Origin: a virus
Lineage: Duplodnaviria > Caudoviricetes
Virus record (IMG/VR): IMGVR_UViG_3300021400_000134
Length of the DNA: 64,000 nt
Reading direction: 5' to 3' (one strand)
Shown: positions 476 through 63,716 of the stretch, one piece after another
How positions within the stretch are numbered: position 1 is the stretch's first letter
Layout: the number at the start of each line of letters is the position of its first letter
The notes under the pieces: generated by a model
What the model was told of the DNA's origin: nothing
The model's input: only the letters and a program-made list of their open reading frames with translations
Databases searched by the model: none
Position numbers and translations under genes: made by a program

Positions 476-1201
476 ATGGCTAGAACAAGATTAAGTGAAA
501 AAGCCACATATGTCGCTCGCGGCTATGGTCAGGTTGAACCAAACCACCTTTCAGCTCAAAAAACTGCTCAAATCTATGCTCAATTACCAGCAGCTGCTGA
601 TATTGACATTTTAGAAAATGGCCAGTTTGCAACATATAACTATGCTGCTGAAGATGGCGGAGCAGTAGACTTTGAAGGCAAAGGCGAGTGGATGATGGTC
701 TTTAATGAGATCAAGCTATATCGTGACTTTGAACAGGATTGCGATTTCGCAATGAAGAAAGAAGATTATGTTGCTCGTGTATACAGCCCAATTGATGGAA
801 CACAGCCACTAACAGAATGGCAGGCTCGTTTCTACGGAGCTAAGGATAGTGAAGGTAATGACAACGCTGAACGTGTTGCTAAGTCAGCTTCTCCTTATGA
901 AGTAGATTCTACAGATGATCCATTCCATGTAGTAGAAAACTACAAAAAGCCAAAGTTTATGCCAGAAGGAACAAGAATGGTTCCTCGTCTTTTCAAGATT
1001 AATATTGGCGATATTTGGACAACAAATACAATTGCTGCTGAACCAGGTAGCCTAAAAGTTGGCGATATGTTAACACCAGGCGCTGATGGTTATCTTGCAC
1101 CAGGTGAAGGCGCAGATGAACTTCACCCAACAATGCAGGTTGTAAAGGTTTACACAATGCCTGATATGCAGCCTGGCGTAAAGGTTATGCGCGTTAAGTA
1201 A
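476..1201 (+). CDS. Head decoration/minor capsid protein (241 aa)
   Basis: SD AGGAGG; sits between scaffold and MCP; no in-frame TGA. Confidence 0.6.
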   Translation: MARTRLSEKATYVARGYGQVEPNHLSAQKTAQIYAQLPAAADIDILENGQFATYNYAAEDGGAVDFEGKGEWMMVFNEIKLYRDFEQDCDFAMKKEDYVARVYSPIDGTQPLTEWQARFYGAKDSEGNDNAERVAKSASPYEVDSTDDPFHVVENYKKPKFMPEGTRMVPRLFKINIGDIWTTNTIAAEPGSLKVGDMLTPGADGYLAPGEGADELHPTMQVVKVYTMPDMQPGVKVMRVK

Positions 1202-1219
1202 TAGGAAAGGAGTAAGGAA

Positions 1220-2341
1220 ATGTTAGATAAGAAAAATTTTATTGCATTAGCTAAGACTGTAGCTAAGGCTGATCCTAAAGCTCCTAAAGCGTATAGCTAT
1301 AATGGACAGGATTTCAGCTATGCTGAACTTAACGAAACACTTCGTAATGAGTTCAAAGAGATTGCTGGAACATACCAGTTATATCGTGAAAATAAGAATT
1401 TAGTATTCTCTATTATTGAAGAAACATTAAATGATGTTCTTCCTAAGAGAGTTGTACAGAACTATGGACAGTTCGCAGAAGTTAAGACTTTTGCTCAGGG
1501 CGATAAGCCAATGTTCCGTAGAAAGATTGATGGCACAAATCGTGCTAAGCAGTTCATTACAAGAGTAGGACTTGCAGGTAACTATGAAGTCTTCAAGCTT
1601 GCTAAGACTTCTGAAAGCTTCGAAGTTCCAACAAGTGCTATTGGCGGAGCTGCACAGATTGGATTCGAAGAATTCCTTGATGGTCGTGCTGATTTTGCTG
1701 AACTTACAAACATCGTAATGGAAGGTATGGATGACCTTGTTTACGAAGAAATTGGTAAGGCTCTTGAAGGTGCTATTAACCAGCTTCCTGCAATGAACCG
1801 TGTTGTTGCTAATGGATTTGATGCAGCTTCATTTGATGAACTAGTTCGTCTTGCTGAATCATATGGTAATGTAACAATTTACTGCACAAACGAATTCGCT
1901 GTTAAGATGATCCCTCAGGAAGCTTGGAGATACACAGAAGCTATGAAGGATGAACTCTATAGAACAGGTCGTTTAAGCGGATATAGAGATAAGAATGTTG
2001 TTATCCTTCCAAATGCTTACAAGGATATCATCGAAGGTAAAGAAAAGGTTATCGACCCATCATTCTGCTGGATTATTCCATCAGGTGCTGACATGAAACC
2101 TGTTAAGGTTGCTTTCGAAGGCGACACTCTTGTTGATGAAAGAGCAAATCGTGACTGGAGCCGTGAAATCCAGGTCTACAAGAAGGTTGGCGTAGTTTGC
2201 ATGATGAATAATGCAATGTGCGTTTATAAGGATACTTCATTATCTAAGGAAGGCTCATTCCAGCTTGCAGACACAGTTAAGAACGTTGTTGTTGTTGACG
2301 GCGGCGAAGGCTCAAGCGCACCAGAACCAGTAAATCCGTAA
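1220..2341 (+). CDS. Major capsid protein (373 aa)
   Basis: Size, position, codon usage typical of highly expressed genes, and a terminator directly after; all Trp are TGG. Confidence 0.8.
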   Translation: MLDKKNFIALAKTVAKADPKAPKAYSYNGQDFSYAELNETLRNEFKEIAGTYQLYRENKNLVFSIIEETLNDVLPKRVVQNYGQFAEVKTFAQGDKPMFRRKIDGTNRAKQFITRVGLAGNYEVFKLAKTSESFEVPTSAIGGAAQIGFEEFLDGRADFAELTNIVMEGMDDLVYEEIGKALEGAINQLPAMNRVVANGFDAASFDELVRLAESYGNVTIYCTNEFAVKMIPQEAWRYTEAMKDELYRTGRLSGYRDKNVVILPNAYKDIIEGKEKVIDPSFCWIIPSGADMKPVKVAFEGDTLVDERANRDWSREIQVYKKVGVVCMMNNAMCVYKDTSLSKEGSFQLADTVKNVVVVDGGEGSSAPEPVNP

Positions 2342-2372
2342 TACTGGGAACTAATTATAATATAAAAGGATA

Positions 2373-2410
2373 AAGGGGAGTAGGGGTAAATCCCCTCTCC
2401 CCTTATTTTC
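2373..2410 (+). terminator. Intrinsic terminator after MCP
   Basis: aaggggag(t)agggg / cccctctcccctt stem followed by attttc. Confidence 0.7.
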
Positions 2411-2440
2411 ATTAAATGGAGAAAAAGGAGATTGTTATAT

Positions 2441-3019
2441 ATGGCAGATTTAGTAGTAGTTGAAAATAGGGCCGCTGGTAAAATTGTATATCGAATTCCA
2501 GATAGAGGTATCCGTAGAGAACTTGCGCCAAGACAGGCTATTAGAGTTCCAAAGGAAGAGATTGAAGCATTATCCTATACTGAAGGCGGACTTGACTTAA
2601 TCAGAAACCACCTCTTGGTAAAAGATGAACAGATTTTAGATGATTTAAATATTCATAGAGAACCTGAGTATTATATGAATGCTGATAATGTCGCCAAACT
2701 TATTAAAGAGGGTAGCTTAAATGAATTTAAGGATGCTTTAGATTTTGCGCCAGATGGTGTTGTTGATATGATTAAAGATTTAAGCGTTCAAATTCCTTTA
2801 AATGATTTCTCAAAGAGACAGGCTCTTAAAGAAATGACTGGATTTGATGTAGATGCGGCAATTGCTCACGATAGAGAGAATAGAGCTGCGGACGGTGATG
2901 AAGCGGTTGCGGCACCAGCACCAAAGACACGTAGAGTCCAGACAACTGGCCGTAGAAGTGCTGGAGGAGTTGCAGCTGAAGCGGTCGCCGCAAACAAACC
3001 TAAGATTATTAAAAAGTAA
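2441..3019 (+). CDS. Hypothetical head-associated protein
   Basis: ORF with SD aaggag; ATG 2441 preferred over TTG 2432. Confidence 0.6.
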   Translation: MADLVVVENRAAGKIVYRIPDRGIRRELAPRQAIRVPKEEIEALSYTEGGLDLIRNHLLVKDEQILDDLNIHREPEYYMNADNVAKLIKEGSLNEFKDALDFAPDGVVDMIKDLSVQIPLNDFSKRQALKEMTGFDVDAAIAHDRENRAADGDEAVAAPAPKTRRVQTTGRRSAGGVAAEAVAANKPKIIKK

Positions 3020-3044
3020 TTTATAAGAGAAAGGAGAATATATT

Positions 3045-3641
3045 ATGGGAACTCAGTTCACAGATATATATAATCGCTTTCTTGGTAAAATCACAGATGA
3101 TATGTACATGGAATTAACTCCAGAAGACACAATGAGGGACTTAAGGTCCCTTTTAATTGATGCAATTCCAGGGTTTGAATTTCCTCGTAAGATACTAGAT
3201 GATTTTTCTATCGAAACTTTAGTTGTTAGAGAAGATGCGGTAGAAGAAGGGGATTTTGTTATTGGAGTTGTTTGAAATACTCCTGACGAAGAAGAGGATG
3301 ATGGAATTCCAGACGTATATATTGAACGCTCGCATTTTAATGTAGATTTAACGAGTGAAGAGATTAATATTCTTGCTTTACTAATGATGTGCGGTTGGCT
3401 TCAACGCCAAGTCACATCTATTGAAAATACTCGCATGAAATACAGCGGGTCAGATTTTAAATTTACCTCCCAAGCCAATCATCTTGCCAAACTATTAAAT
3501 TTATTGTCAGAATGCCAGAGACAATCATTCCATATGCAGCGTCTTTATAAGCGCAGACGCATCAACAGTGATGGATATATTGAATCCAACTGGGATGTTT
3601 TGAGAAATGGAATCTTTGGTGACTACGAAGTTAGGCATTAA
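3045..3641 (+). CDS. Putative head-tail adaptor (198 aa, code 4)
   Basis: Track ORFs 3045-3275 and 3384-3641 share a frame and are separated only by TGA; function from synteny. Confidence 0.65.
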
Positions 3642-3924
3642 TATTCCTGAGAGTTGTTTTAAGTCTGATATAAATAGACTTACAAATCAACTCTGGAAGT
3701 TAATTCCGATGAAAGAAAATGGAGAAAATTGATTAGAACAACTAAATACTGTTTTGATTGAAATTAGGGGATTATCAGAGATGTTTGCTTCAAATGATAA
3801 GTTTCTAATTCTTTTAAGTAAACTTGAGGGTTTACGAGTATCAGAGGATTTAGAATTTAGTACATATCGTAAAACAGTATTTGAATCAATTTCTTTATTA
3901 AGGGAGATGCTAAATGCCATATAG
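3607..3924 (+). CDS. Hypothetical protein (105 aa, code 4), absent from ORF track
   Basis: MESLVTTK...NQLWKLIPMKENGEN(TGA)LEQL...YRKTVFESISLL..., ends in TAG; fills the gap between its neighbours. Confidence 0.7.
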
Positions 3925-4906
3925 TACTGATAGGTCTCAATTTTCCGGAATAAATTTAATGGCAAATAGAATAAATTGGCATGGTGGGCAACCACAGCAA
4001 GACCGCATGATTCGAGATAAGCGATGGACATTAGATCATGCTACAAAATATTCTTATCAGGCTGCGAAGATAAAACATACCGATGCGGTTGACCAAGAAC
4101 AAGCGCCGGCATTAATTAATCCTGATAAGACAAAACAAAATTATGATGATAAAATTCTCTCTGTTGGTTATGAATATAGATACCAACCAGGAGATGTTTT
4201 TGATTGAATGAATACTGGTTCAAAATGAATAATTTATTTACAAGACTTAACAGAACTAGCCTATTTTAGAGGTGAGATTCGTCGTTGTAATTATACAGTA
4301 TCTTGGTTAGATGAAAATGGTGAGAAATATACTCAATATTTAGCTGTAAGAGGACCAGTAGAAACAAAGATTAATTTTATTCAAAAGAATGGTATTAGTG
4401 TAGACGAGCCTAACCATTCTCTTGATATTCTAATGACTAAGACTCCAGAAGCTCTGGAATATTTTAGACGTTATGCTAAATTCTATCTAAAAGGGATAGA
4501 CGAACATGATAAAAATACTTGTTGAAGAGTTGAAGCAACTGATAGTATTAGTATGCGCGGGGTGCTTCAAGTTGTTGCGGTAGAATATTATGCAAATGAA
4601 ACTAGAGATGATTTAGAGAACTCTCTTGTGGATGGATTAGTTATTGAGCCAGTTGATCCAAATATGATTGACGAGGATTTTGATAATTTGATTAAAGGTG
4701 AAACATTTATTAAACCGAGACAGGATTATAAGTATTTTTATAGAGGAAATGAGACTTCACAATGGAGTATTGATAAAAAAGTTCCTGTTAAACTAATTCC
4801 GCAAGGTAAGAAAGTTACATTGAAGTGGGATAGTGGTTATAGTGGACAATTTGTATTAAAGTATGGCTCGTCAGAAAAAACCATTGTGGTTGAGTCATTG
4901 TTTTAA
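3914..4906 (+). CDS. Putative head-closure/head-tail joining protein (330 aa, code 4)
   Basis: One frame with 3 TGA in Trp-like contexts (GDVFD-W-MNTGSK-W-IIY; C-W-RVEA); function from synteny. Confidence 0.65.
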
Positions 4907-4924
4907 AGGAGAAAATGGAGTATT

Positions 4925-5545
4925 ATGATAATTAAGAACTATTCAATACCACATTCTTCTTTCATGTCGGTTGATAAAGATTTAGAACTTATTACAACCT
5001 GAATGATGAAGAATAAGAATTTGTGTAAAATTCTATATTACACAGACAGGGATGCTCTTAGTAGACCAGCATTGACTGATAAACAGCGTGCAGAATTGAT
5101 GGGTAAAAATATTAAAATTGTTCCTAAATTATATGTTGATGGTAGTGTTTTAGCATATGTTATCATTTCTATGGATAATTTTACACCAACTGCAAATCCA
5201 CAATTTAGAGATAATATTATTACTTTTGATATTATTTGTCATTTTGACCAATGACATTTACAAGATTTTCAATTGCGTCCTTATCGCATTGCTGCTGAAA
5301 TTGATTCAATGTTTGATAATCAGCATCTAACTGGAATTGGCGAGATGCATTTTATGGGAGCAAGCCAGATTATTCTTAATGACGAATTTGCTGGATTAAC
5401 ATTAATGTATCAAGCGATTCATGGTGGAGAGGATAAGAAAAATGCCCCAAATCCACAAGACAATAAGCAAATGGTTGATGATTTTAATGAACTCTATGAT
5501 CAAGATTTTACACCATTAACTATTTTTAAATCATCGGATGAATAA
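4925..5545 (+). CDS. Putative tail completion/terminator protein (206 aa, code 4)
   Basis: Joins ORFs 5003 and 5273 across TGA (ICHFDQ-W-HLQDFQLRPYRI); function from synteny. Confidence 0.6.
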
Positions 5546-6267
5546 TGAAAGACATTGAACTTGCACTATTCACTGGAGTAGATATTCCTATTCCAGAGTG
5601 TCAGATAATAATTCATCAACCATCAATTAAAGAAATTTCTATGCTTGGTGAAAGATGGTTTTTAACAGGTGTTCAAGTTTTGTGTATAGATAAAGAGCAA
5701 TTTAAGAAGGACAATTCAGATTTATCTAATACTACTAATTTTCAAATATTTATGACAATAATGCATGAGAAAGAGGCTAGAGAAAGTAAAGAGAGCGTAA
5801 TAGAAGCTCTTTCTTTAATAGTTCCTAATTCAAAGGTCACTCTTACTCCAAGGTCATTATTGTTAAATTATAATGGCGCAAACATTATAATAGATGAAGG
5901 AAATTTTGATAGTTTTCAAGAAATCTTACGGCAAGTTTTTTGTTTAAAGAAAAAAGAGGATGATTTTAATCCAGCGAATGCGGCTGCTGCAAAAATCGCA
6001 GAAAAAATTAAAAAAGGTCGAGCTAAGGTAGCGCATTTAAAGGGTGAAGATGTGGGCAGCGTTTATGCACGCTATATATCAGCTTTATCTGTTGGATTAA
6101 AGATTCCAATCAAAGAATTAATAAATTATACAATTTATCAAATAAATGACCAATTAGAGCGTTTTGGATTATGAACTAATTGAGATTTAGATATTCGATC
6201 AAGACTTGCTGGGGCAAAAGGTGACGGCAAGCCTGAAGATTGAATGAGAAATATCCACAAGGATTAA
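5545..6267 (+). CDS. Tail assembly protein (240 aa, code 4)
   Basis: Extends past TGA 6172 through RLAGAKGDGKPEDWMRNIHKD to TAA 6265-6267. Confidence 0.6.
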
Positions 6268-6286
6268 AGAAGGAGGAAAAAGCCCA

Positions 6287-7357
6287 ATGAAATATGGTAT
6301 TCGTGACGTCGTTGACGTTGTACTTAGAGCCAAGGGTACAATGGATTTAGGAAACAAGCGTTTCTATAAGAATGAACCAGTATTATATTTTGATACACTT
6401 ACTACTTCAACATTAGAGGGCGCTTCTACCACTGTTTATGCACAGGGCGGTAAAGGTAATGCTCGTTTAATGGCTTGGGAAGGTGAACGTACAGTTACTT
6501 TCACAATGGAAGATGCATTGATTTCTCCAGAAAGTTTATCAGTTCTTACTGGTGCAGGATTAATTGAAGCTTCTGACGAAAAGCCTGTTTATCAGCATAT
6601 CGTTGAAACAACTGATGTTCTTCCAGAAAAAGATGGTAATAACTATGTTATTTATGTAGATAAAGAACCTTTCTTACCAGAACCAGATAGCGGTATTGTT
6701 GAAAATGAAAATTATGCTTGCGTAATGTTTACAAGAGATGGTGAAATTATTTCTGAACCATATATTGTTGATCAAAATGCAGAATCTAAGGCAGTAAAAG
6801 ATGAAGAAACTGGAAAATGGAAGATTATTGTTAATGAACATAAGTGCAATTTTGGTACAGCTAATTGCTTCCCAAAAAAGCCAGATAATTATATTCCATC
6901 AAATATTGAAGCAGACCAGCCATTGGCTAATGGTATTTTAATTGACTATTATCATCCAGTTAAGACTGGTGCAAAACAGATTGAAATTGATGCTGAAAAG
7001 TTTGCTGGTTCTTATTATCTTGAAGGTTCAACTCTTTGGAGAGATACAAATGGTGTAGACCATCCAGCAGAATTTATTATTCCTAACTGCAAGATTCAGT
7101 CTGCATTTACATTTACAATGGCTGCTACTGGTGATCCATCAACATTTACATTTACAATGGATGCATTCCCAGATTATACAAGATTCGATAAGAGTCATAA
7201 AGTCTTTGCCGTTGTTCAAATTATTGAATCTGAAACAACTGCTTCTGATGCTAATAATGACCTACACCGTGGTAAGACATGGCATGGTGGAAAGACTTAT
7301 GCTAGTGATTTAGCTGGTACAAGTGCTGATAACCATGATGACCCAAGTCAGGCATAA
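6287..7357 (+). CDS. Major tail tube protein (356 aa)
   Basis: VYAQGGKGNARLMAWEGERTVTFTMEDAL and FTMAATGDPSTFTFTMD resemble tail-tube motifs; strong SD; no TGA. Confidence 0.8.
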   Translation: MKYGIRDVVDVVLRAKGTMDLGNKRFYKNEPVLYFDTLTTSTLEGASTTVYAQGGKGNARLMAWEGERTVTFTMEDALISPESLSVLTGAGLIEASDEKPVYQHIVETTDVLPEKDGNNYVIYVDKEPFLPEPDSGIVENENYACVMFTRDGEIISEPYIVDQNAESKAVKDEETGKWKIIVNEHKCNFGTANCFPKKPDNYIPSNIEADQPLANGILIDYYHPVKTGAKQIEIDAEKFAGSYYLEGSTLWRDTNGVDHPAEFIIPNCKIQSAFTFTMAATGDPSTFTFTMDAFPDYTRFDKSHKVFAVVQIIESETTASDANNDLHRGKTWHGGKTYASDLAGTSADNHDDPSQA

Positions 7358-7370
7358 GAGGTAAGTAATC

Positions 7371-7559
7371 ATGTTTACTCGCTCTAAGAAAGTAAGTAGA
7401 AAGATGGTTGCAAAACCAGCTACTATTAAGATTATTAAACCAGAACAGAGCGAAAGAAAAGAAGAAGCTTTAGACTTATCTAAGGCTAAAATTACTATTA
7501 TTAAGCCTGAAGCTGGTTTAAAGATTATGGTTGAAGAAAATGAAGGGAAGGACGAATAG
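7371..7559 (+). CDS. Small hypothetical protein (62 aa) with a duplicated (T)IIKPE motif
   Basis: SD gaggt; ORF ends inside the terminator. Confidence 0.55.
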   Translation: MFTRSKKVSRKMVAKPATIKIIKPEQSERKEEALDLSKAKITIIKPEAGLKIMVEENEGKDE

Positions 7560-7574
7560 TCCTTCCCTTTTTTT
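7543..7574 (+). terminator. Intrinsic terminator
   Basis: aagggaaggac-gaata-gtccttccctt followed by a T run. Confidence 0.8.
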
Positions 7575-7598
7575 GCTTAGGTAAGAGGTGATAAAAAT

Positions 7599-8726
7599 AT
7601 GGCGAGAGGACAACGAAATTTGACCTTTAAACCTAGTGATTTAGACAAAGTTTTGACAATTGAAGAGTTAACTCAGTATTGCGTAAATGTTATTAAAGAA
7701 ATTAGAACGAATGCTGGTTCTCAATACAGTGAATTAATAAATGATATAAAAAAATTAGAAAGTTTAGAATTAGAAGTAGAAAATTTAAAAATTGATAAAA
7801 ATAATAATGAAAATTATTTAATAAATATAGCAGATAAAATGTTAAAATTATATCATGAGGTTATTAATGTTAGTTTAAAACTCCAAAGATTGTTTCCCTC
7901 AACTTTAAATCTTGCTGAATATGATAAAATAGAATATGCCATTTATGTAAATGGAGAGCGATATTATATAGATTATGATGATATTAAAAATAGTGGAGCT
8001 TTTAGATATAGTGAAAGTAAAAATGCTTTAATGTTAAATTTAAATAAAGCAACAAAGTCTTTAAAAGAAAACATTTCTTTAAAACAAGGTCAATCTATTT
8101 TTAATATTATAAACAAACATTTTGATAAATTTTCAATAATGCTTGATAATACATATAAAGGTGGAGGAAAAATCAATAAAGGCCATAAAGCGGAAGCTTT
8201 TGAGGAACATCTCTCTTTACATCATAGTGGAGCTTATCAGTTTTTAAAAAACAAGGAATACTTGACAGAAATGATTGTTGATCATCGGCAAATGCTTGGA
8301 AATGAATTATTAACAGTTCCCTTTAATGAATGAGGTACTAAAGCACAAATGGCTAGTGGAGAACGACATGAGAGTATAACTGAAGCTTGACAACATATTA
8401 GATCAGCAAAAGGAACATTAAGAGGTACTGTAACGGGTGACGTAGGGAATGTTCAGGTAAAAGAAGGACAAGGTTCTTCTGCACAGGTAAAATTAACAAG
8501 TTTTACTAATTTAAAGTTAGGAGTTCAAATTTATTCTGCAATAATTGATCCAGAAAAAAACATTTATGAAATTGGATATAAATTAGCAAATTATATTTCT
8601 GAAACAGTTAAAAAGGATGCTGTAAAAGGATTAAATAGTAGCGCTCCTATTGAAGAATTAGACAATGATTTAATTGATTTTTTTGATAAACATAAAAAGT
8701 ATCATAAAATAGTTCATATTGGCTAA
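7599..8726 (+). CDS. AT-rich hypothetical protein (375 aa, code 4), possible PD-(D/E)XK-type nuclease
   Basis: Reads through 2 TGA to TAA 8724-8726; motifs KGHKAEAFE and TGDVGNVQVK. Confidence 0.55.
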
Positions 8727-8730
8727 AAAC

Positions 8731-8760
8731 TTGCTTTTTGATAAAATTTTTTGTTATAAT
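8731..8760 (+). promoter_or_regulatory. sigmaA-type promoter with extended -10
   Basis: TTGCTT-N18-TATAAT with TGn immediately before the -10. Confidence 0.6.
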
Positions 8761-8790
8761 AAAATAGAACATAATAGGAGAAATTATATC

Positions 8791-9315
8791 ATGGCAAAAA
8801 TTTCATTAACTAAATTAAAATTAACTCCAAAAGAAAATGTTCATACAATAACTTGAAATGAACAAGAAATTGAAGTTAAGCAATATATCTCTATTGAAGA
8901 TAAGTTAAATATGATTTCTGAGGTTTTAAATGCAGCCGCAGATGAAAATAAATTTTATAATCCGGGTAAAATTGATATGTTTTTTGCTTTAAAAACAATT
9001 GATTATTATACTAATGTTTCAATCACTGATAAGCAAAGAGAAAATCCAATCAAGTTATATGATAATTTTATCTCTTCTGGATTTTATACAGATGTTTTTC
9101 ATGCTATTCCAGAAGACGAAATTGGATATGTTTATAAGGTAATGATGGAAACAGTCGAACAGATTTATAAATATAATAATTCTGCTTATGGAATTTTAGA
9201 CGCATTAGGAACAGATTATAAAGATTTAGATTTCGATATTCAGAAATTAATTGGCGATATTAGAGATAAAAAAGACGTTGAGTTTCTAAATGACGTTATG
9301 ACCAAACTTGGTTAA
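8791..9315 (+). CDS. Putative tail assembly chaperone (174 aa, code 4)
   Basis: ATG 8791 after aggag; one TGA at 8854; directly upstream of the tape measure. Confidence 0.6.
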
Positions 9316-51293: not shown

Positions 51294-51313
51294 AAGAGAG
51301 AAAGGAGACTACT

Positions 51314-53683: not shown

Positions 53684-53695
53684 GGAGGTGCCAGG

Positions 53696-54319: not shown

Positions 54320-55107
54320 AAGATAGCTTAATTACTGGTGATTTGCGAGTCACTGGTACGATATATGGAGACGCCAATTTGAGTTCACTTAATGCGAGCG
54401 GAACTGGATTGGGGTCTAATGGACAAGTTTTAAAATCAACAGGAACTGGATTGGCTTGATTGACATTGGGAAGCTTGGCTTCTAAAAGTACAATTTCTAA
54501 TCATTCTGTCACAATACCAACAGGAGAGACTAGTAGAACAGCGGATGTTGCAGTAAATACAACAACGGTTAACTCAATTACTGGTGTTGGTACATTGCCA
54601 AGTTTAACTGTTACGGCAACTGATGTAGTAACAGGCGGTACTACTACTGCTATTCCAAATATTTCAAAGAAAACTGTTGTAACGGGTGTTACTAAAAAGA
54701 CAGTTGTAACTGGAGGATCTACAACAGCAGTTCCTAACATTTCAAAGAAAACTGTTGTAACATCAGCAACTGCAGCAAAAGCTACCTATAGTTCTGGAGT
54801 ATTGACAATTTCCGATGGAAGTGTGACGACCGGTGATTCAGTAACAGTAGGAACTGCAATTAATGCTTATACAAGTTTAACAACTGGAGATAGTGTTACT
54901 GTAACAACTGGTGATTCAGTAACAGTTGGTACAGCTATTAATGCTTATACTGCTTTAACTACTTCAAGCATCGGTTCCGCTAGTAATTGAAGTGCTGGTA
55001 CATTACCAACTAAAGGTTCTAATACAACTGTTGCTACTGGAATTAAAACACAGCCTACATTTACAGTTACAACGCAAACAACAACATTAACACATACAAT
55101 AAGTTAA
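54307..55107 (+). CDS. Thr-rich needle-type fibre protein (266 aa, code 4), apparent ATC start
   Basis: SD AGGAGGTG 7 nt before ATC-GCA-CAA-TTA-AAA-GAT (xAQLKDSLITGDLRVTGTIYG); in frame with track ORF 54460; ends at TAA 55105-55107. Confidence 0.65.
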
Positions 55108-55119
55108 GGAGGTAATTAA

Positions 55120-56577
55120 ATGGCAAATGGTTTAATAGGAAAAATAACTGCCGGAGGTGGTACACATTTAATTGCCTCGACAGCTTACTTTACGTGTGCA
55201 ACGGCTAAGGCTACTGCGGCAAAAGTGGCAGCTGCTGCAGATACAAATTTAGATAATATAACTTTAATGACAGGCTTAACTATTTATGTAAAATTTACAA
55301 ATCATAATGAAGTAGCAAATCCAACATTGGCTTTATATAAATCAGATGGTACGACTAATTTAGTTGCTGCTAAACCTATTATGAGATATGGAACAACAAC
55401 AGCTTATCAAAGTGCTGCTGGTTCTTGGCGCGATGGGGCAGTAGTAGCTTTTACTTATGATGGAACTAATTGAGTTGAGCACTCGAGTATTGATGATAAT
55501 AGTAATGATACAGGATATTATGTTAGACATATCTATACAAATATTAAAGCTGGTTCTGTTGGTATTTTCCCTTATACAATAATTATGCAAAGAAATGACG
55601 GACGTTGAGATTCTATTGTAACAAGTAGTTCTACTGGTACGTCAAAAGCGTGTAATACAAATGGATTCGTATTAGGTCAAGTCATGCTAATGTATGCGAA
55701 TAAAACTTATGCCGCAGATGCTAATGTTGATACATATAATGTATGACAAATGCATAGCGGACTAGTTGATCATAGATATAGTTTTAATACCGCTAATAAT
55801 GCAACAAGTGGTACTGCCGCTAGAAAACCTATATATTTAGTTGGGACTGTTACTAATGGATTATTCTATTTAGATACAACTAAATGATGAGCTACTGCTT
55901 TACCGACAAGTGCTGATGGGAAAGTCTATATTTATATAGGAGAATCTTATGATTATTATAGACTTACGTTTACTGGGTATCATCCAATATATCATTATAC
56001 AAATGGAGCTTTAAGACTATACGGGGGAGACGCCTCAACGGTTAATGGACAAGTATTAGGTACATTAGCAACTAAATCCAGCATTGCTAATCATTCATAT
56101 ACGCCAGCTGGAAGTGTCTCCGTTTCTACTAATGCGACAACCAATAAAACAGCTACGGTTAGCCCAGCGTCTTCTGGAACGGCTACATATACACCAGCTG
56201 GAACAATTGCTGTAAATACTGCAGGTTCTACTGTTGCTGCAGATGATATTACCGCATGAACAACTAATACGCCAACAGCGGTTACTAAAAAAACTGTTGT
56301 AACTGGTACGAGCGCAACTACAATTAGCGTATCTTCTGAAGTTTTAACAATACCTGCTTCCGTTATAACGTCTGCAACTACTGGTGATAGCGTTAGTGTA
56401 ACAGCAGGTACAGCTGCATCATTATCATACACTGCACGTACAGTTAAATCTGGAGATGCCAGTTATAAATTTACTGGTACTGGTGTGCGTTTGGTTACTG
56501 GTAATATTGCGGTTCCTAATACATATACCGCATCATTTACCGGCACAGCAGCAACATTGACTCATACAGTTTCATAA
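55120..56577 (+). CDS. Tail fibre protein with needle-type C-terminus (485 aa, code 4)
   Basis: YFTCATAKATAAKV and SWRDGAVVAFTYDGTNW fibre motifs; tandem TGA-TGA at 55885-55890; C-terminal domain homologous to the previous gene. Confidence 0.75.
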
Positions 56578-56587
56578 AATTTTTTTC

Positions 56588-56616
56588 TTGACACATCAAG
56601 AAAAATTTCGTATAAT
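56588..56616 (+). promoter_or_regulatory. Perfect-consensus sigmaA promoter; the -35 lies within an inverted repeat
   Basis: TTGACA-N17-TATAAT; tttttcttga-caca-tcaagaaaaa palindrome. Confidence 0.8.
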
Positions 56617-56620
56617 ACAT

Positions 56621-56715
56621 ATAGGTTAAGATGGTAAGTCGATACCAGAATGAAAAGTTTAAAAAATGGATTGGGAATATTTAGCTGGAAAATCCTTATC
56701 ATCTTAATCTATTTT
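56621..56715 (+). ncRNA. Candidate structured small RNA or leader
   Basis: ataggttaagatggtaag pairs with cttatcatcttaatctat (18 bp, 2 G-U); starts at the expected +1 and ends in tttt. Confidence 0.4.
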
Positions 56716-56746
56716 AAAAAATCGCCTCTTATTCCAAAAAATAGGA

Positions 56747-56790
56747 GGGAGGGGGTAAGTTTTAAATCTCTTACCTCCCATATTTTTTTA
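56747..56790 (+). terminator. Terminator-like hairpin
   Basis: gggagg(gg)gtaag / cttacctccc followed by a T run. Confidence 0.6.
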
Positions 56791-56804
56791 TAGGAGGATA
56801 CAAC

Positions 56805-57758
56805 ATGGCGGATATAAAACAGATAAAGGTAGGCACTACTACCTATGATATAAAAGATGGTACCGCTAGAGAAGCATTATCTGAAAAAGTGTCTAAAGCT
56901 GGTGACACCATGACAGGAAACTTATGAATAAGTAATGGTTTAACCAAAGGAACAAACCCAAGTTCTGATACCACTCGCTATGTATCTTTTGTTGATGGTG
57001 AAGGAATCGCTGTAGATAATAGAACAGGTGCGATTATTAACCAGATAAAAACAGATGGAACATCTTTTACTGGAATTTATGCCTATGATTTTACTGCTGA
57101 TTCTACTCAAGCCCAAGTTTTAAGAACATTTAAACCGCAAGGCGGTAATGGATATTCAAATGTTAGTAGCGCTGATGTTTCTAATGCGGTTTTAAGAAAT
57201 ATTGGTTATGGTACAGGCTCTCCTAGTGGTGGCAGTGATGGAGATGTTTATATTCAATATAATACAACTTCCACACATCCATTTTTAGATTTAGTTTATC
57301 CAGTGGGTGCAATTTATTTATCTACTGTTAATACAAATCCTGGGACTTTGTTTGGAGGAACTTGAAGTCAAATTAAAGACAGGTTTTTGCTTGCGGCAGG
57401 TGATACTTATGCTGCTGGAGGTACTGGTGGTGCTGCAACAGTAACGTTAAGTAAAGCTAATATGCCGGCTCATACTCACAGTAGAGGCACCATGGAAATC
57501 AAAGGTAGTTTTCGTATTAATGATGATGGCAATAATGCTGGTCTTGATGCTGCTAGTTCTGGAAGCGGAGCCATTAGCGCGGTAAGCGGAACAGGAACAG
57601 GTTCAGATGTAGATGGAACTGGATGAGCAGTAACGAAAGGTTTTGATTTTCAAGCTTCTAAGAATTGAAGCGGGGCAACATCTTCAGAAGGCTCTGGTAC
57701 TGCGCATGAAAATATGCCACCATATCTTACTGTTTATGTTTGGCAAAGGACTGCATAA
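56805..57758 (+). CDS. Short fibre with tail-collar/T4 gp10 C-terminal-like domain (317 aa, code 4)
   Basis: YPVGAIYLSTVNTNPGTLFGGTWSQIKDRFLLAAG...MPAHTH...HENMPPYLTVYVWQRTA. Confidence 0.8.
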
Positions 57759-57771
57759 GGAGTAATATAAT

Positions 57772-58842
57772 ATGGCTGTTTATGTAGGAAGTAGTTGAGT
57801 AGAATTAGATAGATGGTCTGATGCTACTGGTTATGGTAATAATGCTGAATGAAGACTAATGGCATATTCCAGACAAGGCGATGCAACAAGCAATAGTTCA
57901 ACAGTTTATTTTAAATGACAGGTAAGTTGTTCTACCGGCTCTGTTTATAATTATGATGCTCATTATTCGAGTGTTTCTGGTACTGGCCCAATGGGGGACG
58001 GTCATAATGCAACACAAACCTGAGCTTTTGGAAGTGTACCTGATACGAGTTGGCATGAAGTTACTGGCGATTCTTCTGATATGTATTGGTCAGGATTGAA
58101 ACATAGGGCAGATGGAACTTGTTCTCTTACTCTAAATGCTTCTGGTACAAGGTGGAATAATTCTAGTTTTAGTACAAATATTAGTATTACTTTACCGACA
58201 ATTAGTAGAACCTATACTGTTTCATACAATGCTAATGGAGGAACAGGCGCCCCAAATAGTCAAACAAAAACGCAAAATGTTACTTTAACATTATCAAGTA
58301 CAAAACCGACGAGAACCGGTTATACTTTTTCTAAATGAAATACCAAAGCAGACGGTTCTGGCACTAACTATAATCCAGGAGCATCTTACACTACTAATGC
58401 TGCACTTACGCTATACGCGCAATGAACAATTAATACCTATACAATTACTATTAACCCTAATGGCGGTTCATTTACTTCAAGCAAAAATAGCACAGCGCAA
58501 TCAACGGCTCAATCTTATACAGTAAATTATGGCAGTAGTATTACAAATATTACTGCAAGTCGTTCTGGTTATATGCCAGCTGGATGATTTACTGAGTCTT
58601 CTGGTGGAACAAAAGTTATAAACAATGGTGGAAGTTTAAATTCAATTTCTTCATCTCGTACTATATATGCACAATGGACAAAAGAAGACCCCCCACCAGA
58701 CCCAATTTATGATGTTTATACAAAAATTGGCGGAACATGGGTGCCAGGAGTGATTTGAATTAAAGTTAACGATGTTTGGTATAGAGGCTTAGAAACAACT
58801 CTAAAAGTTAGTGGTTCTTGAAGAAAAATGAAAGCGCAATAG
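57772..58842 (+). CDS. Virion adhesin with InlB B-repeats (356 aa, code 4)
   Basis: YTVSYNANGGTGAP...KPTRTGYTFSKWNTKADGSG...TLYAQW, followed by a second repeat; DUF859-like N-terminal region. Confidence 0.75.
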
Positions 58843-58858
58843 AGAAAGGTGGTAGAAT

Positions 58859-59515
58859 ATGGCAGCGGTTAAACAAATTAAAATTGGAAACACAAATTAT
58901 GATTTAAAAGCTCTCAATGCTGCTAATCAAAACCAAAGTGGTGCAGTAGTAAGAGATATACAATATGGCACTGCAGCTCCAACAGGCGGTTCTGCGGGAC
59001 AGATGTATTTACAATATGTTAATACAGATACTGAAAATTTATATTTATACGCAGAAGATACCGCTGCAGATACTACAGGAGTGGCTGATAAATATTACAG
59101 TAAAAGTGAAGTTGATGCTATGATTGCTAATCTTACTAATAAAACAACCTGACATAACTATGCTTGAGGAGGCAATACATCTTCAGGTCAAACTGTAACT
59201 ATTACATGTTCTGGTCCTGGCTTTATTATAATTTCAGCTTTTATTAGAGCTAATAATAGTACAGATAACTATGGTCTTTTAGCTACCTCTATATCTAAAT
59301 CAGATAATAATGGTTCTTCTTGGAACGAAATTTCTAGAGAAGAACATAGAAAACATGGATCAGGTTATTCTATAGCTCCTGCTGCTTTTGCTTCAACAGG
59401 AACTTCTACTTCAAGTGCTACAAGATTTAAAATTGAATTTAATAGGTCTTATGAGGGAACTCATTATTGAAGAATAGAGGTTCTTTCTGTTGGATGTACT
59501 GTAACTAAATTATAA
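58859..59515 (+). CDS. Receptor-binding candidate, conserved N-terminus and variable head (218 aa, code 4)
   Basis: MAAVKQIKIGNTNYDLKALNAA; reads through TGA to TAA 59513-59515. Confidence 0.75.
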
Positions 59516-59529
59516 GAGGATAATCGATT

Positions 59530-59946
59530 ATGGCACAAAACAAGTATATTAAGCAAAATGGTGAAGTAATATACCCTATTACGAAAACTGAAAATGTATT
59601 AAATAAAGCTGGATTGGATTGTTTTGGTTGATGTAATGGCATAATGTGATGTTACGCAACTAGAAGTTCTACCAGTACGGTAGATTGAACTTTAAATGCA
59701 AATTTTGGTTCTAATGGAATAAAGATTAATACTTTAAAGATGGATGGAACTGTGCAAAGGGTTACTTTTACGTCATCTTTAGCTTCAACAAACTATGGGG
59801 TTTGAGTTTCAGCAGAAGTTGGTGGAACAGCCAGCGAAATTCTTGGCGTATATGGTAGAACTACAAGTGGTTTTGCCATCGATTGTGCGAATTATAATGG
59901 AGCTGCAACTCAACCAGTCCAAATAAGTATTTTAATTATATATTAA
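59530..59946 (+). CDS. Small fibre-tip/lectin-like protein (138 aa, code 4), absent from ORF track
   Basis: MAQNKYIKQNGEVIYP...VTFTSSLASTNYGVWVS...RTTSGF; 4 TGA. Confidence 0.7.
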
Positions 59947-59966
59947 TTAAAGAAAGGTGATAGAAT

Positions 59967-60056
59967 ATGGCGGCTGTAAAACAGATAAAAATAGGTAATA
60001 TTAATTATAATATGCTGCTATATTTAACAGTTTACATGTGAAGAAGAACGGCATAA
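59967..60056 (+). pseudogene. 29-codon internal-deletion relic of a collar-domain fibre gene
   Basis: MAAVKQIKIGNINY fused in frame to NMLLYLTVYMWRRTA (compare NMPPYLTVYVWQRTA); SD retained. Confidence 0.75.
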
Positions 60057-60072
60057 CTAAAGGAGGTAAGAC

Positions 60073-61077
60073 ATGGCTACACTTGGAACTTCATGAACTA
60101 ATATAGGAAGTCAAAGTTTCTCTGTTGGCGGTTATGGTCATACCGCCTACATATATGCAAAATTAAACCATCAATCTGGATTAACCTCTTATATTGATTT
60201 AGAATTAAGAATTAATTATAGTGTTTGATTACAATCTTATGATACAGACTTTTATTTAACCGGTTATGGATGATTAGGCTATGCCTATAGAGAATGAATG
60301 AGTGCTGGAACATATACGATTATGTCTTCTAGCATAACGGTAGGACATGACTCAAATGGAAATGCATCCTTTGCAGCTCAAGGTGGTTATGAATACAAAG
60401 GAATGGGTGTCAGCGCAACCACATTCTGAAGTAGTACCTATAGTCTGCCTAAAATTACTGTAAATTATACAGTAACTTATAATGCGAACGGTGGTTCTGG
60501 CCAACCTGGAAACCAGACCAAAGTTCATGGAACAAATTTGACATTATCTTCAACTAAACCTAGTTGAAGTGGACATACATTTAAACATTGAAATACTGCG
60601 GCGAATGGTTCTGGTACATCTTATAATCCAGGAGGAACATATTCTACAAATGCGAATGTTACATTATATGCACAATGAGATAATGAAACATATACAATTA
60701 CATACAATGCAAATGGAGGAGATGGCGCGCCAGATACTTCAACTAAAGTTTATGGTAGTCCAATGAGATTATCTACAATAACCCCAACGAGAGCAGGGTA
60801 TACGTTTTTTAGATGAAATACTGCTTCTGATGGAACTGGACAAGATTTTAGTCCAGGTGGATTATTTGGAATAGATGCCACTACAACATTATATGCTATT
60901 TGAATACCGAATGGTACTGCGCCGACTGGTTTGTTTGATTGCTACACTGCAATCAAAGGAGCTGGACAATATACTCCTTGCTTTATATGGATTAAAGTAG
61001 GAAGTACGTGATATTTTGTTAAAAAAACTGCGGTAAATGTCGGCGGGACATGGAAAACTGTAAGTAACAAAGGATAG
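60073..61077 (+). CDS. Virion adhesin with two InlB B-repeats (334 aa, code 4), paralog of 57772
   Basis: YTVTYNANGGSGQP...WNTAANGSG...TLYAQW repeated; 11 TGA and 2 TGG; missed by the ORF track. Confidence 0.8.
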
Positions 61078-61086
61078 GAGGAGAAT

Positions 61087-61743
61087 ATGGCAGCTGTAAA
61101 ACAGATTAAGATAGGTAATACAAACTACGATTTAAAAGCATTGAATGCGGCTAATCAAAATCAATCAAATGCTGTTGTAAGAGATGTCCAGTATGGAACA
61201 GCTACTCCTACTGGCGGAAGTGCTGGTCAAATATATTTACAATATACTAATACAGATACCACCAATCCCTATGTTTATGCTGAGGATACTCCTGGAACTG
61301 AAGTTAATGTCAGTGATAAATATTACAGTAAAACTGAGGTTGATAATAAATTTGCTTGAAAAAAATTTGGTTCACATAGTGGAGCAGATAATTGAGATAT
61401 AACTTCTTGTTGAAACCAATGTCAAGAATTATATATTGTTGTTAGTAAATACTTTAGAGGTTCTAACACTTCAGCGAATGAAGTCATAGAATTACAATGT
61501 CACGTATTAAAACAGCAGGTTGAAGAAGATTGGACTAGTTCATACAATACTGGAAAAATTGTATTTATTCCAGCTGGAAATAGATATAATAATAATCAAG
61601 GAAATAGCAGTATTTGAAATGCCCTTTTTAGATTACATAATGGTAATGGTAATGTTTATCTTCAGTTAAACGAATTATTTTGTGTATCACTCGCTTCAAC
61701 AAATCAGAATGGCTCAGGGTATTATATATTATATTGAAGGTAA
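61087..61743 (+). CDS. Receptor-binding candidate (218 aa, code 4), paralog of 58859
   Basis: First ~88 aa highly similar to 58859; the C-terminal part is unrelated by eye. Confidence 0.75.
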
Positions 61744-61748
61744 TTATT

Positions 61749-62225
61749 ATGGCACAAATACAATATTTAAAAAAGAATGGGGAATTAATATATCCTCATA
61801 TTTCAGTTGACCAAATATACCCAGTGGGGAGTATTTATATGAGCATAAATAACGCGAATCCTGAAGACCTTTTTGGTGGAACATGGGAACAGATCCAGGG
61901 AAGATTTTTACTTGCAGCTGGTGGTGGTTATAATGCCGGTGCAACTGGAGGAGAAGCTAATCATACGTTAACCTCTAACGAAATGCCAAGTCATTATCAC
62001 TCTTTTCAATGGTCTGCTTCTAATTCTGAATATGATGCTGGAGTTAGTGGTAGTACAAATCCTTGAAATTTTGGTAATTTAACAGATGAAGGACATTCTG
62101 TTATGGTACACTGAACATATAATGGTAGTGAAAGGCAGGGTAATACCAGCAGCACCGGCGGAGGCGCAGCACATAACAATATGCCACCATATTTAGTAGT
62201 ATATGTTTGAAAAAGAACAGCTTAA
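61749..62225 (+). CDS. Short collar-domain fibre (158 aa, code 4)
   Basis: MAQIQYLKKNGELIYP N-terminus like 59530, plus YPVGSIYMS...GGTWEQIQGRFLL...HNNMPPYLVVYVWKRTA like 56805. Confidence 0.8.
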
Positions 62226-62331: not shown

Positions 62332-62377
62332 GGACAGGTTTATATAATTTTGCCTGCCCATTTTTTATTTATAATGT
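62332..62377 (+). promoter_or_regulatory. Putative late-promoter motif, copy 7
   Basis: GGACA-N8-TAA-N18-TATTTATAATGT; overlaps an imperfect hairpin and T run. Confidence 0.5.
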
Positions 62378-62434
62378 ACCGAGGGAAGGTACTCAATAGA
62401 AAAGTTTTACTAATAATGGAAAGGAAGTAAAGTT

Positions 62435-62815
62435 ATGATGAATTATTCAGGATACCCTGCTCCAACGTATCCAACTTATGGAGCAATGGGTCAACAACAA
62501 CTTTATACCCAGAGACAAGAAGTGGTTAGGGTCAATGGGCGAAATGGTGCAAATGCTTATCAAATGGCGCCAAATAGTAGTATACTACTTTTAGATGAGA
62601 CTGCACCAATTATTTGGTTAAAAACAACAGACGGAGCATCATATCCAACAGTAACTGGATATACGATTACTCCAATTGAAACTCAAGCAACAACTACGGC
62701 GAGTGTAGATTATTCAGCTTTAGAAGAAAGAATATCAAAATTAGAAGAGGCATTCAATGCAAGGAAATCCGATGCTTCAGATTCTAAACCAATCAAGACC
62801 ATTAATAAACAATAA
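62435..62815 (+). CDS. Hypothetical protein with Tyr/Pro/Gln-rich N-terminus (126 aa)
   Basis: Intact ORF with SD; short C-terminal coiled coil (LEERISKLEE). Confidence 0.75.
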   Translation: MMNYSGYPAPTYPTYGAMGQQQLYTQRQEVVRVNGRNGANAYQMAPNSSILLLDETAPIIWLKTTDGASYPTVTGYTITPIETQATTTASVDYSALEERISKLEEAFNARKSDASDSKPIKTINKQ

Positions 62816-62996
62816 TATGGTCTCAATGATAAAAAACTCGCCTAATCCTCAAGTTTTGCTAAATAATTTATTGGCGCAAAATCCTAAAGTATCTGGATTA
62901 ATAAATCAATATGGCGGTGATGCAAGAACCGCTTTTTATGCGCTTGCGCAACAAAAGGGGGTAGACCCTAATTCAATATTAGACATGTTAAAATAA
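62757..62996 (+). CDS. Gln/Asn/Met-rich hypothetical protein (79 aa)
   Basis: SD gagg; overlaps the upstream gene; NPMLQ...AQQKGVDP. Confidence 0.7.
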   Translation: MQGNPMLQILNQSRPLINNNMVSMIKNSPNPQVLLNNLLAQNPKVSGLINQYGGDARTAFYALAQQKGVDPNSILDMLK

Positions 62997-63001
62997 GTCA
63001 A

Positions 63002-63043
63002 CCTAATTAGTAAGACTTAACTATTGAATTACTAATTAGGAGG
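63002..63043 (+). promoter_or_regulatory. 12-bp hairpin overlapping the SD of the 63051 gene
   Basis: cctaattagtaa (63002-63013) / ttactaattagg (63029-63040); SD aggagg at 63038-63043. Confidence 0.5.
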
Positions 63044-63050
63044 ATTTAAA

Positions 63051-63716
63051 ATGGAAAATGGAAGTTTATCAGCTAGTGATGTTGCTTTACTCAGTGATCG
63101 CAATGGTTATGGTGACATGTGGGGCGGCAATTCCATGATGTGGATTTTTGCTTTATTGATTCTTGCTGGTGGCGGCTTTAATGGTTGGGGTAACAACGGC
63201 TTCGCTAACGCAATCGGTTATGAAAACTTGGCAACACAATCACAAGTAGATCGTGGTTTTGATACCCAGAATATGATGGCAAATCAAAGAGAAACTCTTG
63301 CTGCTGTCAATGCTGGAACCGCACAAGCAGTAGCCGCAACTAATCAGACATTCCATGACACAGTTAATGCTTTAAGTGATAAATATAGTGAACTTGCTAG
63401 AGATATCAGTGGCTTAGCTGTTGGTCAGGCTAATTTGTTAGCAAAAGAAAATGAATGTTGCTGCCAGACACTTCGCGCAATTGATGGTGTAAATTATGCG
63501 AATGCTTTAAATACAGCTGCAATTAATGAAAACACAACTGCGCAGACTCAGAAAATCCTAGATGCTATTACTGGTAATCGTATGGCTGACATGCAAAATC
63601 AAATTAACCAATTACAGCTTCAGCAAGCTGTTGCTGGTGTAGTTCGCTACCCAAGTGCTAGCACTTATTACGCAGGAACAAATCCGTTCTGCGCTTGCGG
63701 TGGAGCAACACTTTAA
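63051..63716 (+). CDS. Hypothetical protein: hydrophobic helix, Gly-rich segment, CCC motif, coiled coil (221 aa)
   Basis: MMWIFALLILAGGGFNGWG, ENECCCQT, MQNQINQLQLQQ and C-terminal FCACGG. Confidence 0.8.
   Translation: MENGSLSASDVALLSDRNGYGDMWGGNSMMWIFALLILAGGGFNGWGNNGFANAIGYENLATQSQVDRGFDTQNMMANQRETLAAVNAGTAQAVAATNQTFHDTVNALSDKYSELARDISGLAVGQANLLAKENECCCQTLRAIDGVNYANALNTAAINENTTAQTQKILDAITGNRMADMQNQINQLQLQQAVAGVVRYPSASTYYAGTNPFCACGGATL

Follow-up and report, generated by a model that had tools for sequence, protein, structure and literature searches.

The 64,000-nucleotide stretch of IMG/VR record IMGVR_UViG_3300021400_000134 analysed here (the window) corresponds to the late (virion) module of a long-tailed siphovirus of approximately 160 kb from the ruminant gut, in which the stop codon TGA is read as tryptophan (Trp). 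Within this recoded block, the genes whose products are expected to be the most abundant, encoding the major capsid protein and the probable tail tube protein, write all seven of their Trp codons as TGG, and this gene-specific avoidance is conserved in relatives of the phage and recurs in sister lineages that recode TAG. A preliminary description of the window, made from its letters alone, had proposed that TGA is excluded from high-copy structural genes, and in this central point it holds. The explanation that we favour, at a probability of about 0.7, is graded translational selection against a costly recoded stop codon in genes translated in bulk. From the scaling of tail length with the tape measure protein, the capsid and tube proteins are each presumably needed in several hundred copies.

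Distribution of TGA and TGG in the Late Module

The preliminary description had counted 26 Trp codons, all TGG, in the nine genes below, and a recount returned the same figures (26 TGG, 0 TGA).

3 to 458, plus strand: 3′ end (151 codons) of a scaffold-like head gene, phrog_34215; 0 TGA, 1 TGG
476 to 1201, plus strand: g476, directly upstream of the capsid gene; 0 TGA, 3 TGG
1220 to 2341, plus strand: major capsid protein, by tblastn to annotated Bacillus phage capsids; 0 TGA, 3 TGG
6287 to 7357, plus strand: probable tail tube protein, third gene upstream of the tape measure gene; 0 TGA, 4 TGG
35072 to 36829, plus strand: g35072, 585 aa, followed by a hairpin at 36896 to 36928; 0 TGA, 3 TGG
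44899 to 45117, plus strand: 72-codon open reading frame (ORF); one Trp codon, TGG
45204 to 47354, plus strand: g45204, 716 aa; 0 TGA, 7 TGG
62435 to 62815, plus strand: g62435; one Trp codon, TGG
63051 to 63716, plus strand: g63051, 221 aa, followed by a hairpin at 63726 to 63752; 0 TGA, 3 TGG

The genes described as rich in TGA were confirmed as such, with 6 TGA and 0 TGG in the GIY-YIG endonuclease gene at 53696, 11 and 2 in the gene at 60073, and 24 TGA in the tape measure gene; the whole window holds 197 TGA and 122 TGG. The TGA share is heterogeneous between genes (chi-squared 78.8, 34 degrees of freedom, p = 2 × 10⁻⁵), and in 20,000 permutations the number of Trp codons falling in TGA-free genes averaged 3.9 and never exceeded 21, short of the 26 observed. 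For the capsid and tube genes, which were chosen a priori, the count of 0 TGA among 7 Trp codons gives a Fisher p of 0.001. Genes 62435 and 44899, with a single Trp codon each, carry no weight, and genes 2432, 22489 and 28762 have no Trp codon.

Base composition accounts for some of this pattern. The G+C content of third codon positions (GC3) is 0.29–0.31 in the head genes against approximately 0.17 elsewhere, and each gene's preference for A or G as the third base of Lys, Glu and Gln codons, which served as the composition control, explains part of the variance in TGA share. However, heterogeneity is left after this control (p = 0.0002). When the scaffold fragment, which covers no more than the final 151 residues of its gene, is counted with the a priori genes, the controlled model gives P = 0.0066. 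GC3 is ordinary in 35072 (0.13) and 45204 (0.18). Glutamine is written as CAG in 88% of cases in the capsid and tube genes (11 of 11 in the capsid gene) against 27% in low-copy genes, whereas glutamate as GAG shifts the opposite way, from 22% in low-copy genes to 6%. Since CAG is favoured but GAG avoided, the bias is not a general shift towards G in the third position or in GC3. The preliminary description had asked whether GC3 fully explains the TGA fraction; it does not, and a GC3-only explanation was rejected on the residual heterogeneity and the opposite shift of Glu.

The Same Genes Are Spared under TGA and TAG Recoding

In IMG/VR, 75 loci were found around a related capsid gene, the closest of them on contigs of up to 138–178 kb, and the capsid-linked loci fall into three groups that are TGA-recoded, TAG-recoded or standard-code. 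Recoded codons were counted only inside segments homologous to the window proteins, with one genome taken per 95% capsid cluster, which left a non-redundant set of 7 TGA-lineage and 17 TAG-lineage genomes. Taken together, g476, the capsid gene and the tube gene contain 0 TGA among 62 Trp codons in the former, and 8 TAG against 543 CAA or CAG in the latter, divided as follows.

g476: TGA lineage 0 of 20; TAG lineages 1 TAG against 203 CAA or CAG
Capsid gene: TGA lineage 0 of 22; TAG lineages 2 TAG against 217 CAA or CAG
Tube gene: TGA lineage 0 of 20; TAG lineages 5 TAG against 123 CAA or CAG
Neighbouring genes: TGA lineage 38–76% TGA (97 of 167 in all); TAG lineages 27–48% TAG in five of six, with 12% in 8719

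The recoded share is lower in the bulk genes than in other genes in all 7 TGA-lineage and all 17 TAG-lineage genomes (Wilcoxon p = 1.5 × 10⁻⁵ for the latter). The connector- or neck-position genes reach 45–76% TGA and 27–48% TAG in relatives, and their Trp sites are polymorphic; gene 2432 is intermediate in the TAG lineages, with 17 TAG against 112 CAA or CAG (13%). The recoded share thus forms a gradient, from 0–1% in g476 and the capsid gene through 4% in the tube gene, 7–13% in the scaffold-like gene, 2432 and 8719, and 8–17% in 45204, to 27–76% in the others. A few relatives tolerate TAG inside the capsid gene (two codons in locus L028) or the tube gene. CAG, which lies one step from TAG, is commonest in the spared genes (128 in capsid genes against 14 in g3914), so a scarcity of precursor codons cannot explain the avoidance of TAG.

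Site by site, all 10 Trp positions of the bulk genes are TGG in each of 8 TGA-clade genomes. Among 23 Trp sites of other head and tail genes in the same genomes, 17 are polymorphic for TGA and TGG, 4 are TGA throughout and only 2 are TGG throughout (Fisher p = 7 × 10⁻⁷ for 10 of 10 against 2 of 23). Since the low-copy sites are polymorphic, turnover between TGG and TGA must be fast and the bulk genes actively held at TGG; time alone is insufficient. The capsid tree needs at least five changes of code, and the sparing pattern has therefore arisen repeatedly. Within this one capsid family (loci L002–L076), TGA-recoded, TAG-recoded and standard-code genomes are interleaved on the tree, and some standard-code and TAG-recoded pairs are very close (L036 and L034).

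Link to Codon Adaptation

A score based on relative synonymous codon usage, contrasting the capsid and tube genes with five large tail genes and excluding Trp, was set against the TGA fraction, a check proposed in the preliminary description. Among 21 held-out window genes with at least 3 Trp codons, the two are strongly anticorrelated (rho = −0.79, p = 2.5 × 10⁻⁵). The highest-scoring held-out genes are g476 (the highest), the scaffold-like fragment, 63051, 45204, 35072, 2432 and the giant gene 36962, and the TGA-free genes with at least 3 Trp codons all rank on top. The correlation extends to the TGA-recoded relatives G2 (−0.59) and G3 (−0.64) and to the TAG-recoded relative G9 (−0.45).

The capsid, g476 and tube genes prefer TTC, ATC, CAG and CTT and avoid ATA, which are usual marks of translational selection. 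Relatives carry 22–30 tRNA genes, including Gln-CTG (twice), Phe-GAA, Ile-GAT and Trp-CCA (G1, positions 1–9000 and 170–175 kb; loci L077 and L085); in G1, these four read the bulk-gene codons CAG, TTC, ATC and TGG.

The Phage, Its Genetic Code and Its Host

When TGA is taken as Trp, the window holds an uninterrupted series of 38 genes on the plus strand, which break into fragments if TGA is taken as a stop; six-frame coverage by long ORFs rises from 0.50 under code 11 to 1.10 under code 4. The genes end in TAA, with two in TAG and none in TGA, and the GC content is approximately 0.34. In alignments to relatives without TGA recoding, Trp stands opposite window TGA codons at 168 of 253 aligned positions, a share similar to that opposite TGG (274 of 426), which identifies TGA as a Trp codon in the window genes on alignment grounds. 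A code with TGA as glycine was rejected, as the alignments point to Trp. In TAG-recoded relatives, TAG aligns with Gln.

By protein similarity, the window belongs to the assemblage of phAss-1 and EF1 (PMC10607447), as a large ruminant-gut siphovirus. Its capsid protein is 50% identical to that of phAss-1, 38% to those of Enterococcus phage EF1 and its kin, and approximately 25% to those of large Bacillus siphoviruses. A megablast search with 20 kb of the window against a phage collection gave no DNA match, and matching DNA was found in bovine and sheep gut metagenomes of 13 studies.

The near-complete relatives G1, G2 and G3 are dual-coded, with 0–5% TGA in replication or early blocks and 50–85% in late blocks (in G1, the interval 30–50 kb has 3 TGA against 70 TGG). 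A host that itself reads TGA as Trp would not require such avoidance in early genes, and the host is therefore very probably a standard-code bacterium with release factor 2 (RF2), as judged from the TGA-free early genes of relatives. The preliminary description had named a code-4 host with the same bias in its own genes as an alternative that would undo its reading; such a host is disfavoured by the early blocks of G1–G3 and was rejected. Its proposal that TGA decoding competes with host RF2 is plausible given the probable standard code of the host, with the competition itself presumed. No gene with an RF-1 domain was found in four relatives.

No tRNA gene was found in the 64-kb window. A tRNA(UCA) is present in the TGA-recoded relative G1 (95 nt) and in relative G4 (72 nt, of normal form), and a tRNA(CUA) in three TAG-recoded relatives.

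IMGVR_UViG_3300021387_000299 (G1), 58412 to 58506 (L079:18412–18506), minus strand: tRNA(UCA), 95 nt
G9, 20170 to 20259; G8, 47560 to 47653; G7, 22379 to 22467: tRNA(CUA), 89–94 nt

In G1, the tRNA gene has the orientation of the late block and occupies its far end; this position is not conserved, as the gene is absent from the same place in 12 relatives. A search with it returned only T-arm matches in other relatives. The detection rate for suppressor tRNAs is also low in published recoded phages (bioRxiv 10.1101/2021.08.26.457843). The tRNA(UCA) of G1 and the tRNA(CUA) of G7, G8 and G9 share a long extra arm, and those of G1 and G9 hardly differ in the acceptor stem, the D arm or the anticodon stem although TGA aligns with Trp and TAG with Gln. 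One long-armed suppressor tRNA body, carrying a UCA or a CUA anticodon, may serve both codes, and if so would ease flips between TGA and TAG recoding; the tRNA(UCA) of G4, of normal length, does not share this form.

Bulk Virion Genes

The order of the capsid gene, four connector-position genes, gene 6287–7357, two chaperone-position genes and the tape measure gene places 6287 in the tail-tube position. Its product has an ESM Atlas match of 0.98 to YomU/Tube clusters and belongs to phrog_2729 (virion structural protein); on gene order and the Atlas lead it is probably the tail tube. The AlphaFold model is poor (predicted local distance difference test score, pLDDT, 54), and BFVD matches say only "structural protein". 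Translation is assigned to the ATG at 6287 and not the TTG at 6206, as an invariant M1 opens the alignment; the TGA of the longer ORF consequently falls outside the gene. For g476, the Atlas offers Phage_cement on 15–19% of the members of two clusters, as a lead only, and the product is a possible cement or decoration protein. Sequence searches of the PDB with the capsid protein and the tube profile gave nothing useful.

Distal TGA-Free Genes

Further downstream, gene 35072 has 1 TGA among 19 Trp codons in six TGA-clade alleles, and its homologue in the TAG-recoded G9 (30% identity) has 0 TAG against 18 CAA or CAG. Gene 45204 has 5 TGA among 62 in seven TGA-clade alleles, where flanking genes have approximately 55%, and 0 TAG against 24 CAA or CAG in G9; other TAG-recoded relatives are less clean, at approximately 17% against 35% in the flanks. 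The AlphaFold model of the 45204 product (pLDDT 82) predicts that a conserved domain at the N terminus leads into a series of Ig/FN3-like domains, for which Foldseek returned tandem Ig arrays such as titin and Dscam, a predicted build that suits a decoration or fibre protein.

The giant gene 36962 has the lowest TGA share among the large genes of the window. Its homologues are TGA-poor in some relatives and TAG-poor in G9 (6 TAG against 80 CAA or CAG). The share varies from 17 TGA and 23 TGG in the window to 5 of 36 in L097 and 6 of 21 in G3, at 30–70% identity among relatives, which suggests that parts of the gene have been recombined or replaced.

The single Trp codon of 44899 is TGG in 7 of 7 alleles, one site that carries little weight. 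Gene 62435 had been counted as an avoidance gene, but 7 of 11 relative alleles have TGA and its TGA-free state here is due to chance. Avoidance in 63051 held in part: its codon score is high, but TGA occurs in some relatives (5 of 26 in the TGA clade). Its product has an N-terminal hydrophobic segment, a Q/N-rich coil and a Cys cluster, and the gene has a GC content of 0.42. This small gene of the late or lysis region is shared widely: IMG/VR contains approximately 150 relatives, and many of these belong to standard-code phages of 35–40 kb with a higher GC content (L119–L180). The preliminary description had predicted that 35072, 45204 and 63051 are high-copy products; their positions near the top of the codon score agree with this, and high expression as such would follow from that score.

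Contigs from two small RNA libraries cover, between 34 and 54 kb, only 34163 and 45204–47376, but they cannot rank genes by expression, may include carried-over DNA and were not used as evidence. In two studies, RNA contigs stop at 36904, next to the hairpin predicted at 36896–36928, which is a weak hint and not evidence.

Remaining Features of the Late Block

2432 to 3019, plus strand: g2432, head-module gene without Trp codon
3045 to 6267, plus strand: connector- or neck-position genes 3045, 3914, 4925 and 5545; 9 TGA, 8 TGG
7542 to 7570, plus strand: terminator-like hairpin after the tube gene, with a 12-bp stem, 6 GC pairs and a T run
7599 to 9315, plus strand: two tail-chaperone-position genes between the tube and tape measure genes; 3 TGA, 0 TGG
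9428 to 17938, plus strand: tape measure protein by size and position, 2836 aa; 24 TGA, 9 TGG
18053 to 35050, plus strand: large distal-tail or baseplate genes; 56 TGA, 28 TGG
36962 to 44884, plus strand: giant tail protein, 2640 aa; 17 TGA, 23 TGG
47376 to 48167, plus strand: g47376, followed by a hairpin at 48174 to 48200; 1 TGA, 2 TGG
48322 to 62225, plus strand: twelve TGA-rich genes, the two listed next among them; 87 TGA, 26 TGG
53696 to 54319, plus strand: GIY-YIG endonuclease, among tail genes; 6 TGA, 0 TGG
60073 to 61077, plus strand: gene with Listeria-Bacteroides repeats; 11 TGA, 2 TGG
9361 to 9397, 17943 to 17970, 34088 to 34111 and 51250 to 51276, plus strand: remaining terminator-like hairpins

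The tape measure proteins of relatives have 3149–3209 aa (PMC10607447). Gene 34163–35050 carries a Phage_tail_C tip domain, the two chaperone-position genes have no family match, and Pfam searches found no family for 476, 2432, 6287, 35072, 45204, 62435, 63051 or the connector genes; PHROGs matches of the window proteins are mostly of "unknown function". The GIY-YIG gene has no homologue at the same place in most relatives and probably encodes a mobile homing endonuclease, fully adapted to the code of the phage. Eight strong terminator-like hairpins were identified on the plus strand, all of them intergenic. Those just after the TGA-free tube gene, 35072, the 45204–47376 unit and 63051 suggest separate expression units inside the late block.

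Explanations for the Sparing of Bulk Genes

An explanation has to cover what was observed: TGA and TGG are unevenly distributed among genes, this pattern is conserved and returns with TAG, it goes together with codon adaptation, and relatives are dual-coded. Under graded translational selection, AT-biased mutation would turn TGG into TGA, and CAG into TAG in the sister lineages, almost neutrally in low-copy late genes, which would end at approximately 60–80% TGA and flip to and fro between close relatives. Each TGA would be dearer in genes needed at hundreds of copies per particle, such as those for the capsid, the cement-like g476 and the tube. Decoding by a suppressor tRNA is presumably slow or limiting, and RF2 probably takes some of the ribosomes and leaves truncated protein. 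Purifying selection scaled to translational load would then keep TGG in these three genes, with weaker selection on a second tier made up of the scaffold-like gene, 2432, 35072, 45204 and the giant 36962. The whole process would be ordinary codon bias by selection, mutation and drift, graded by expression and acting on a reassigned stop codon. We infer both the nature of the cost, be it competition with RF2 or limitation by tRNA, and the high expression of 35072, 45204 and 63051.

Several observations weigh against this explanation. The scaffold-like gene, expected to be high-copy although its function is putative, carries 1–4 TGA (or 3–5 TAG) in full-length homologues of relatives, so its depletion is partial only. 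Genomes of one clade are not fully independent samples, and the correlation with the codon score is weak in the TAG-recoded relatives G8 (−0.26) and G7 (−0.12). No suppressor tRNA was found in the window, in the 6 kb downstream of 63051 (on a twin contig), or in G2 or G3. The strong GC3 shift that marks the capsid genes is missing from 35072 and 45204, and the latter diverges fast, with 42–69% identity where capsids have 89–98%, which fits an exchange of cassettes as well.

A more elaborate explanation, which we consider unlikely, is that the recoded stops act as a designed translational throttle or timer: bulk proteins, free of TGA, would be translated first or independently, and the connector, tape measure, tail-tip and fibre proteins would be delayed or limited by the suppressor tRNA. 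If this were true, the code switch would help to set assembly order and stoichiometry. In each relative, hardly any low-copy late gene is without TGA, and any TGA means dependence on the suppressor; however, at least one TGA is expected by chance in genes with 3–30 Trp codons at approximately 60% TGA. The published model of a late-gene switch (bioRxiv 10.1101/2021.08.26.457843) builds on dual coding of the kind seen in the relatives, with TGA-free early genes, and the hairpins after the tube gene, 35072, the 45204–47376 unit and 63051 may delimit separate expression units. The same-strand tRNA(UCA) at the end of the G1 late block also fits a throttle, but not its absence from that place in 12 relatives. 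Against a throttle stand the unconserved TGA positions (17 of the 23 low-copy Trp sites are polymorphic among 8 genomes), the graded avoidance, with classes at 4–20% and no all-or-none split, the TAG codons inside the capsid and tube genes of some relatives, and the agreement with general codon adaptation, which a throttle does not predict. The proposals of codon-level control of stoichiometry and of gated virion completion made in the preliminary description thus find no support: the effect is graded, TGA positions are not conserved and TAG is tolerated in capsid and tube genes. Its statement that low-copy proteins depend on the recoding switch repeats the published late-gene model and brings no evidence beyond it.

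Slightly less probable again, and applicable only to the distal genes 35072, 36962, 45204 and 63051, is an exchange of cassettes, in which exposed tail or lysis genes are often swapped across codes. The divergence of 45204 alleles among phages with closely similar capsids, the kin of 63051 in many standard-code, higher-GC phages of 35–40 kb together with its own GC content, and the TGA-poor state of the giant 36962 in only some relatives are in its favour. However, 35072 and 45204 are depleted in nearly every allele examined, and also in the TAG-recoded relative at 28–30% identity, so that constant import would be needed from standard-code donors, which are only about one third of the family. 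Both genes are also high in codon adaptation, and for the capsid, g476 and tube genes, the trees of which agree with the clade, an exchange is no explanation. Composition or chance, by which the TGA-free genes would merely be richer in GC3 or, like those with one Trp codon or none, poor in Trp, or the host would itself read TGA as Trp, is largely refuted by the residual heterogeneity, the ordinary GC3 of 35072 and 45204, the opposite Glu shift, the counts in relatives and the TGA-poor early genes, and is given a very low probability.

Comparison with Known Systems

Late-gene recoding with standard-code early genes has been published for gut phages (bioRxiv 10.1101/2021.08.26.457843). The Agate-type recoded phages of gut and rumen described there by Borges et al. 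share with the window phage and its relatives a low GC content, TAA as nearly the only stop, TGA as Trp, recoding in structural and lysis genes with standard-code replication genes, a patchy suppressor tRNA, close relatives with different codes and a source in the cattle gut; all three states of the code (TGA-recoded, TAG-recoded and standard) occur within the Agate clade. The resemblance is one of genome size, habitat and mixed codes, not of terminase phylogeny. That preprint treats the structural block as uniformly recoded and does not mention the capsid, whereas the block described here is heterogeneous, with the bulk genes exempt. The phAss-1 ("Phassvirus") and EF1-like siphoviruses (PMC10607447) share genomes of 130–180 kb, a tape measure protein of approximately 3000 aa and 20–36 tRNA genes, but phAss-1 recodes TAG to Gln where the window phage recodes TGA to Trp; genes that escape recoding were not analysed in that paper. 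No statement of the sparing of bulk virion genes inside a recoded late block was found in the phage papers searched, which is not proof of absence.

Outside phages, reassigned stop codons fall with codon adaptation or expression in Blastocrithidia (PMC12153298) and in the ciliate PL0344 (PMC10553269), where this was read as translational burden. In these organisms, the release factor and tRNAs of the cell itself were altered over long times, whereas the phage very probably imposes its code on a standard-code, RF2-intact cell within one infection, where the cost should be larger. In the phage, moreover, the genes that contrast with one another belong to a single operon-like block.

That highly expressed genes are under translational selection in their choice of synonymous codons is a classical idea, described by the selection-mutation-drift model. 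The capsid, g476 and tube genes share its graded codon bias; they differ from the classical case in that the disfavoured codon of the phage is very probably a stop codon of the host, and the penalty may include termination.

Significance

For a recoded phage, reading a stop codon as sense is not free, as its most heavily translated genes refuse TGA, and the pattern supports the view that such phages impose their own code on a standard-code cell. In recoded phages that have not been cultured, it offers a marker, obtainable from sequence only, of virion genes with high expression or high copy number, and here flags g476, 35072 and 45204. It also carries a warning for annotation, since a capsid gene that is intact under code 11 does not mean that the phage uses the standard code. 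The idea of recoding as a finely designed regulator is tempered, as mutation pressure and graded selection would give most of the pattern; the sparing of bulk genes is real, general and useful, and ordinary in mechanism.

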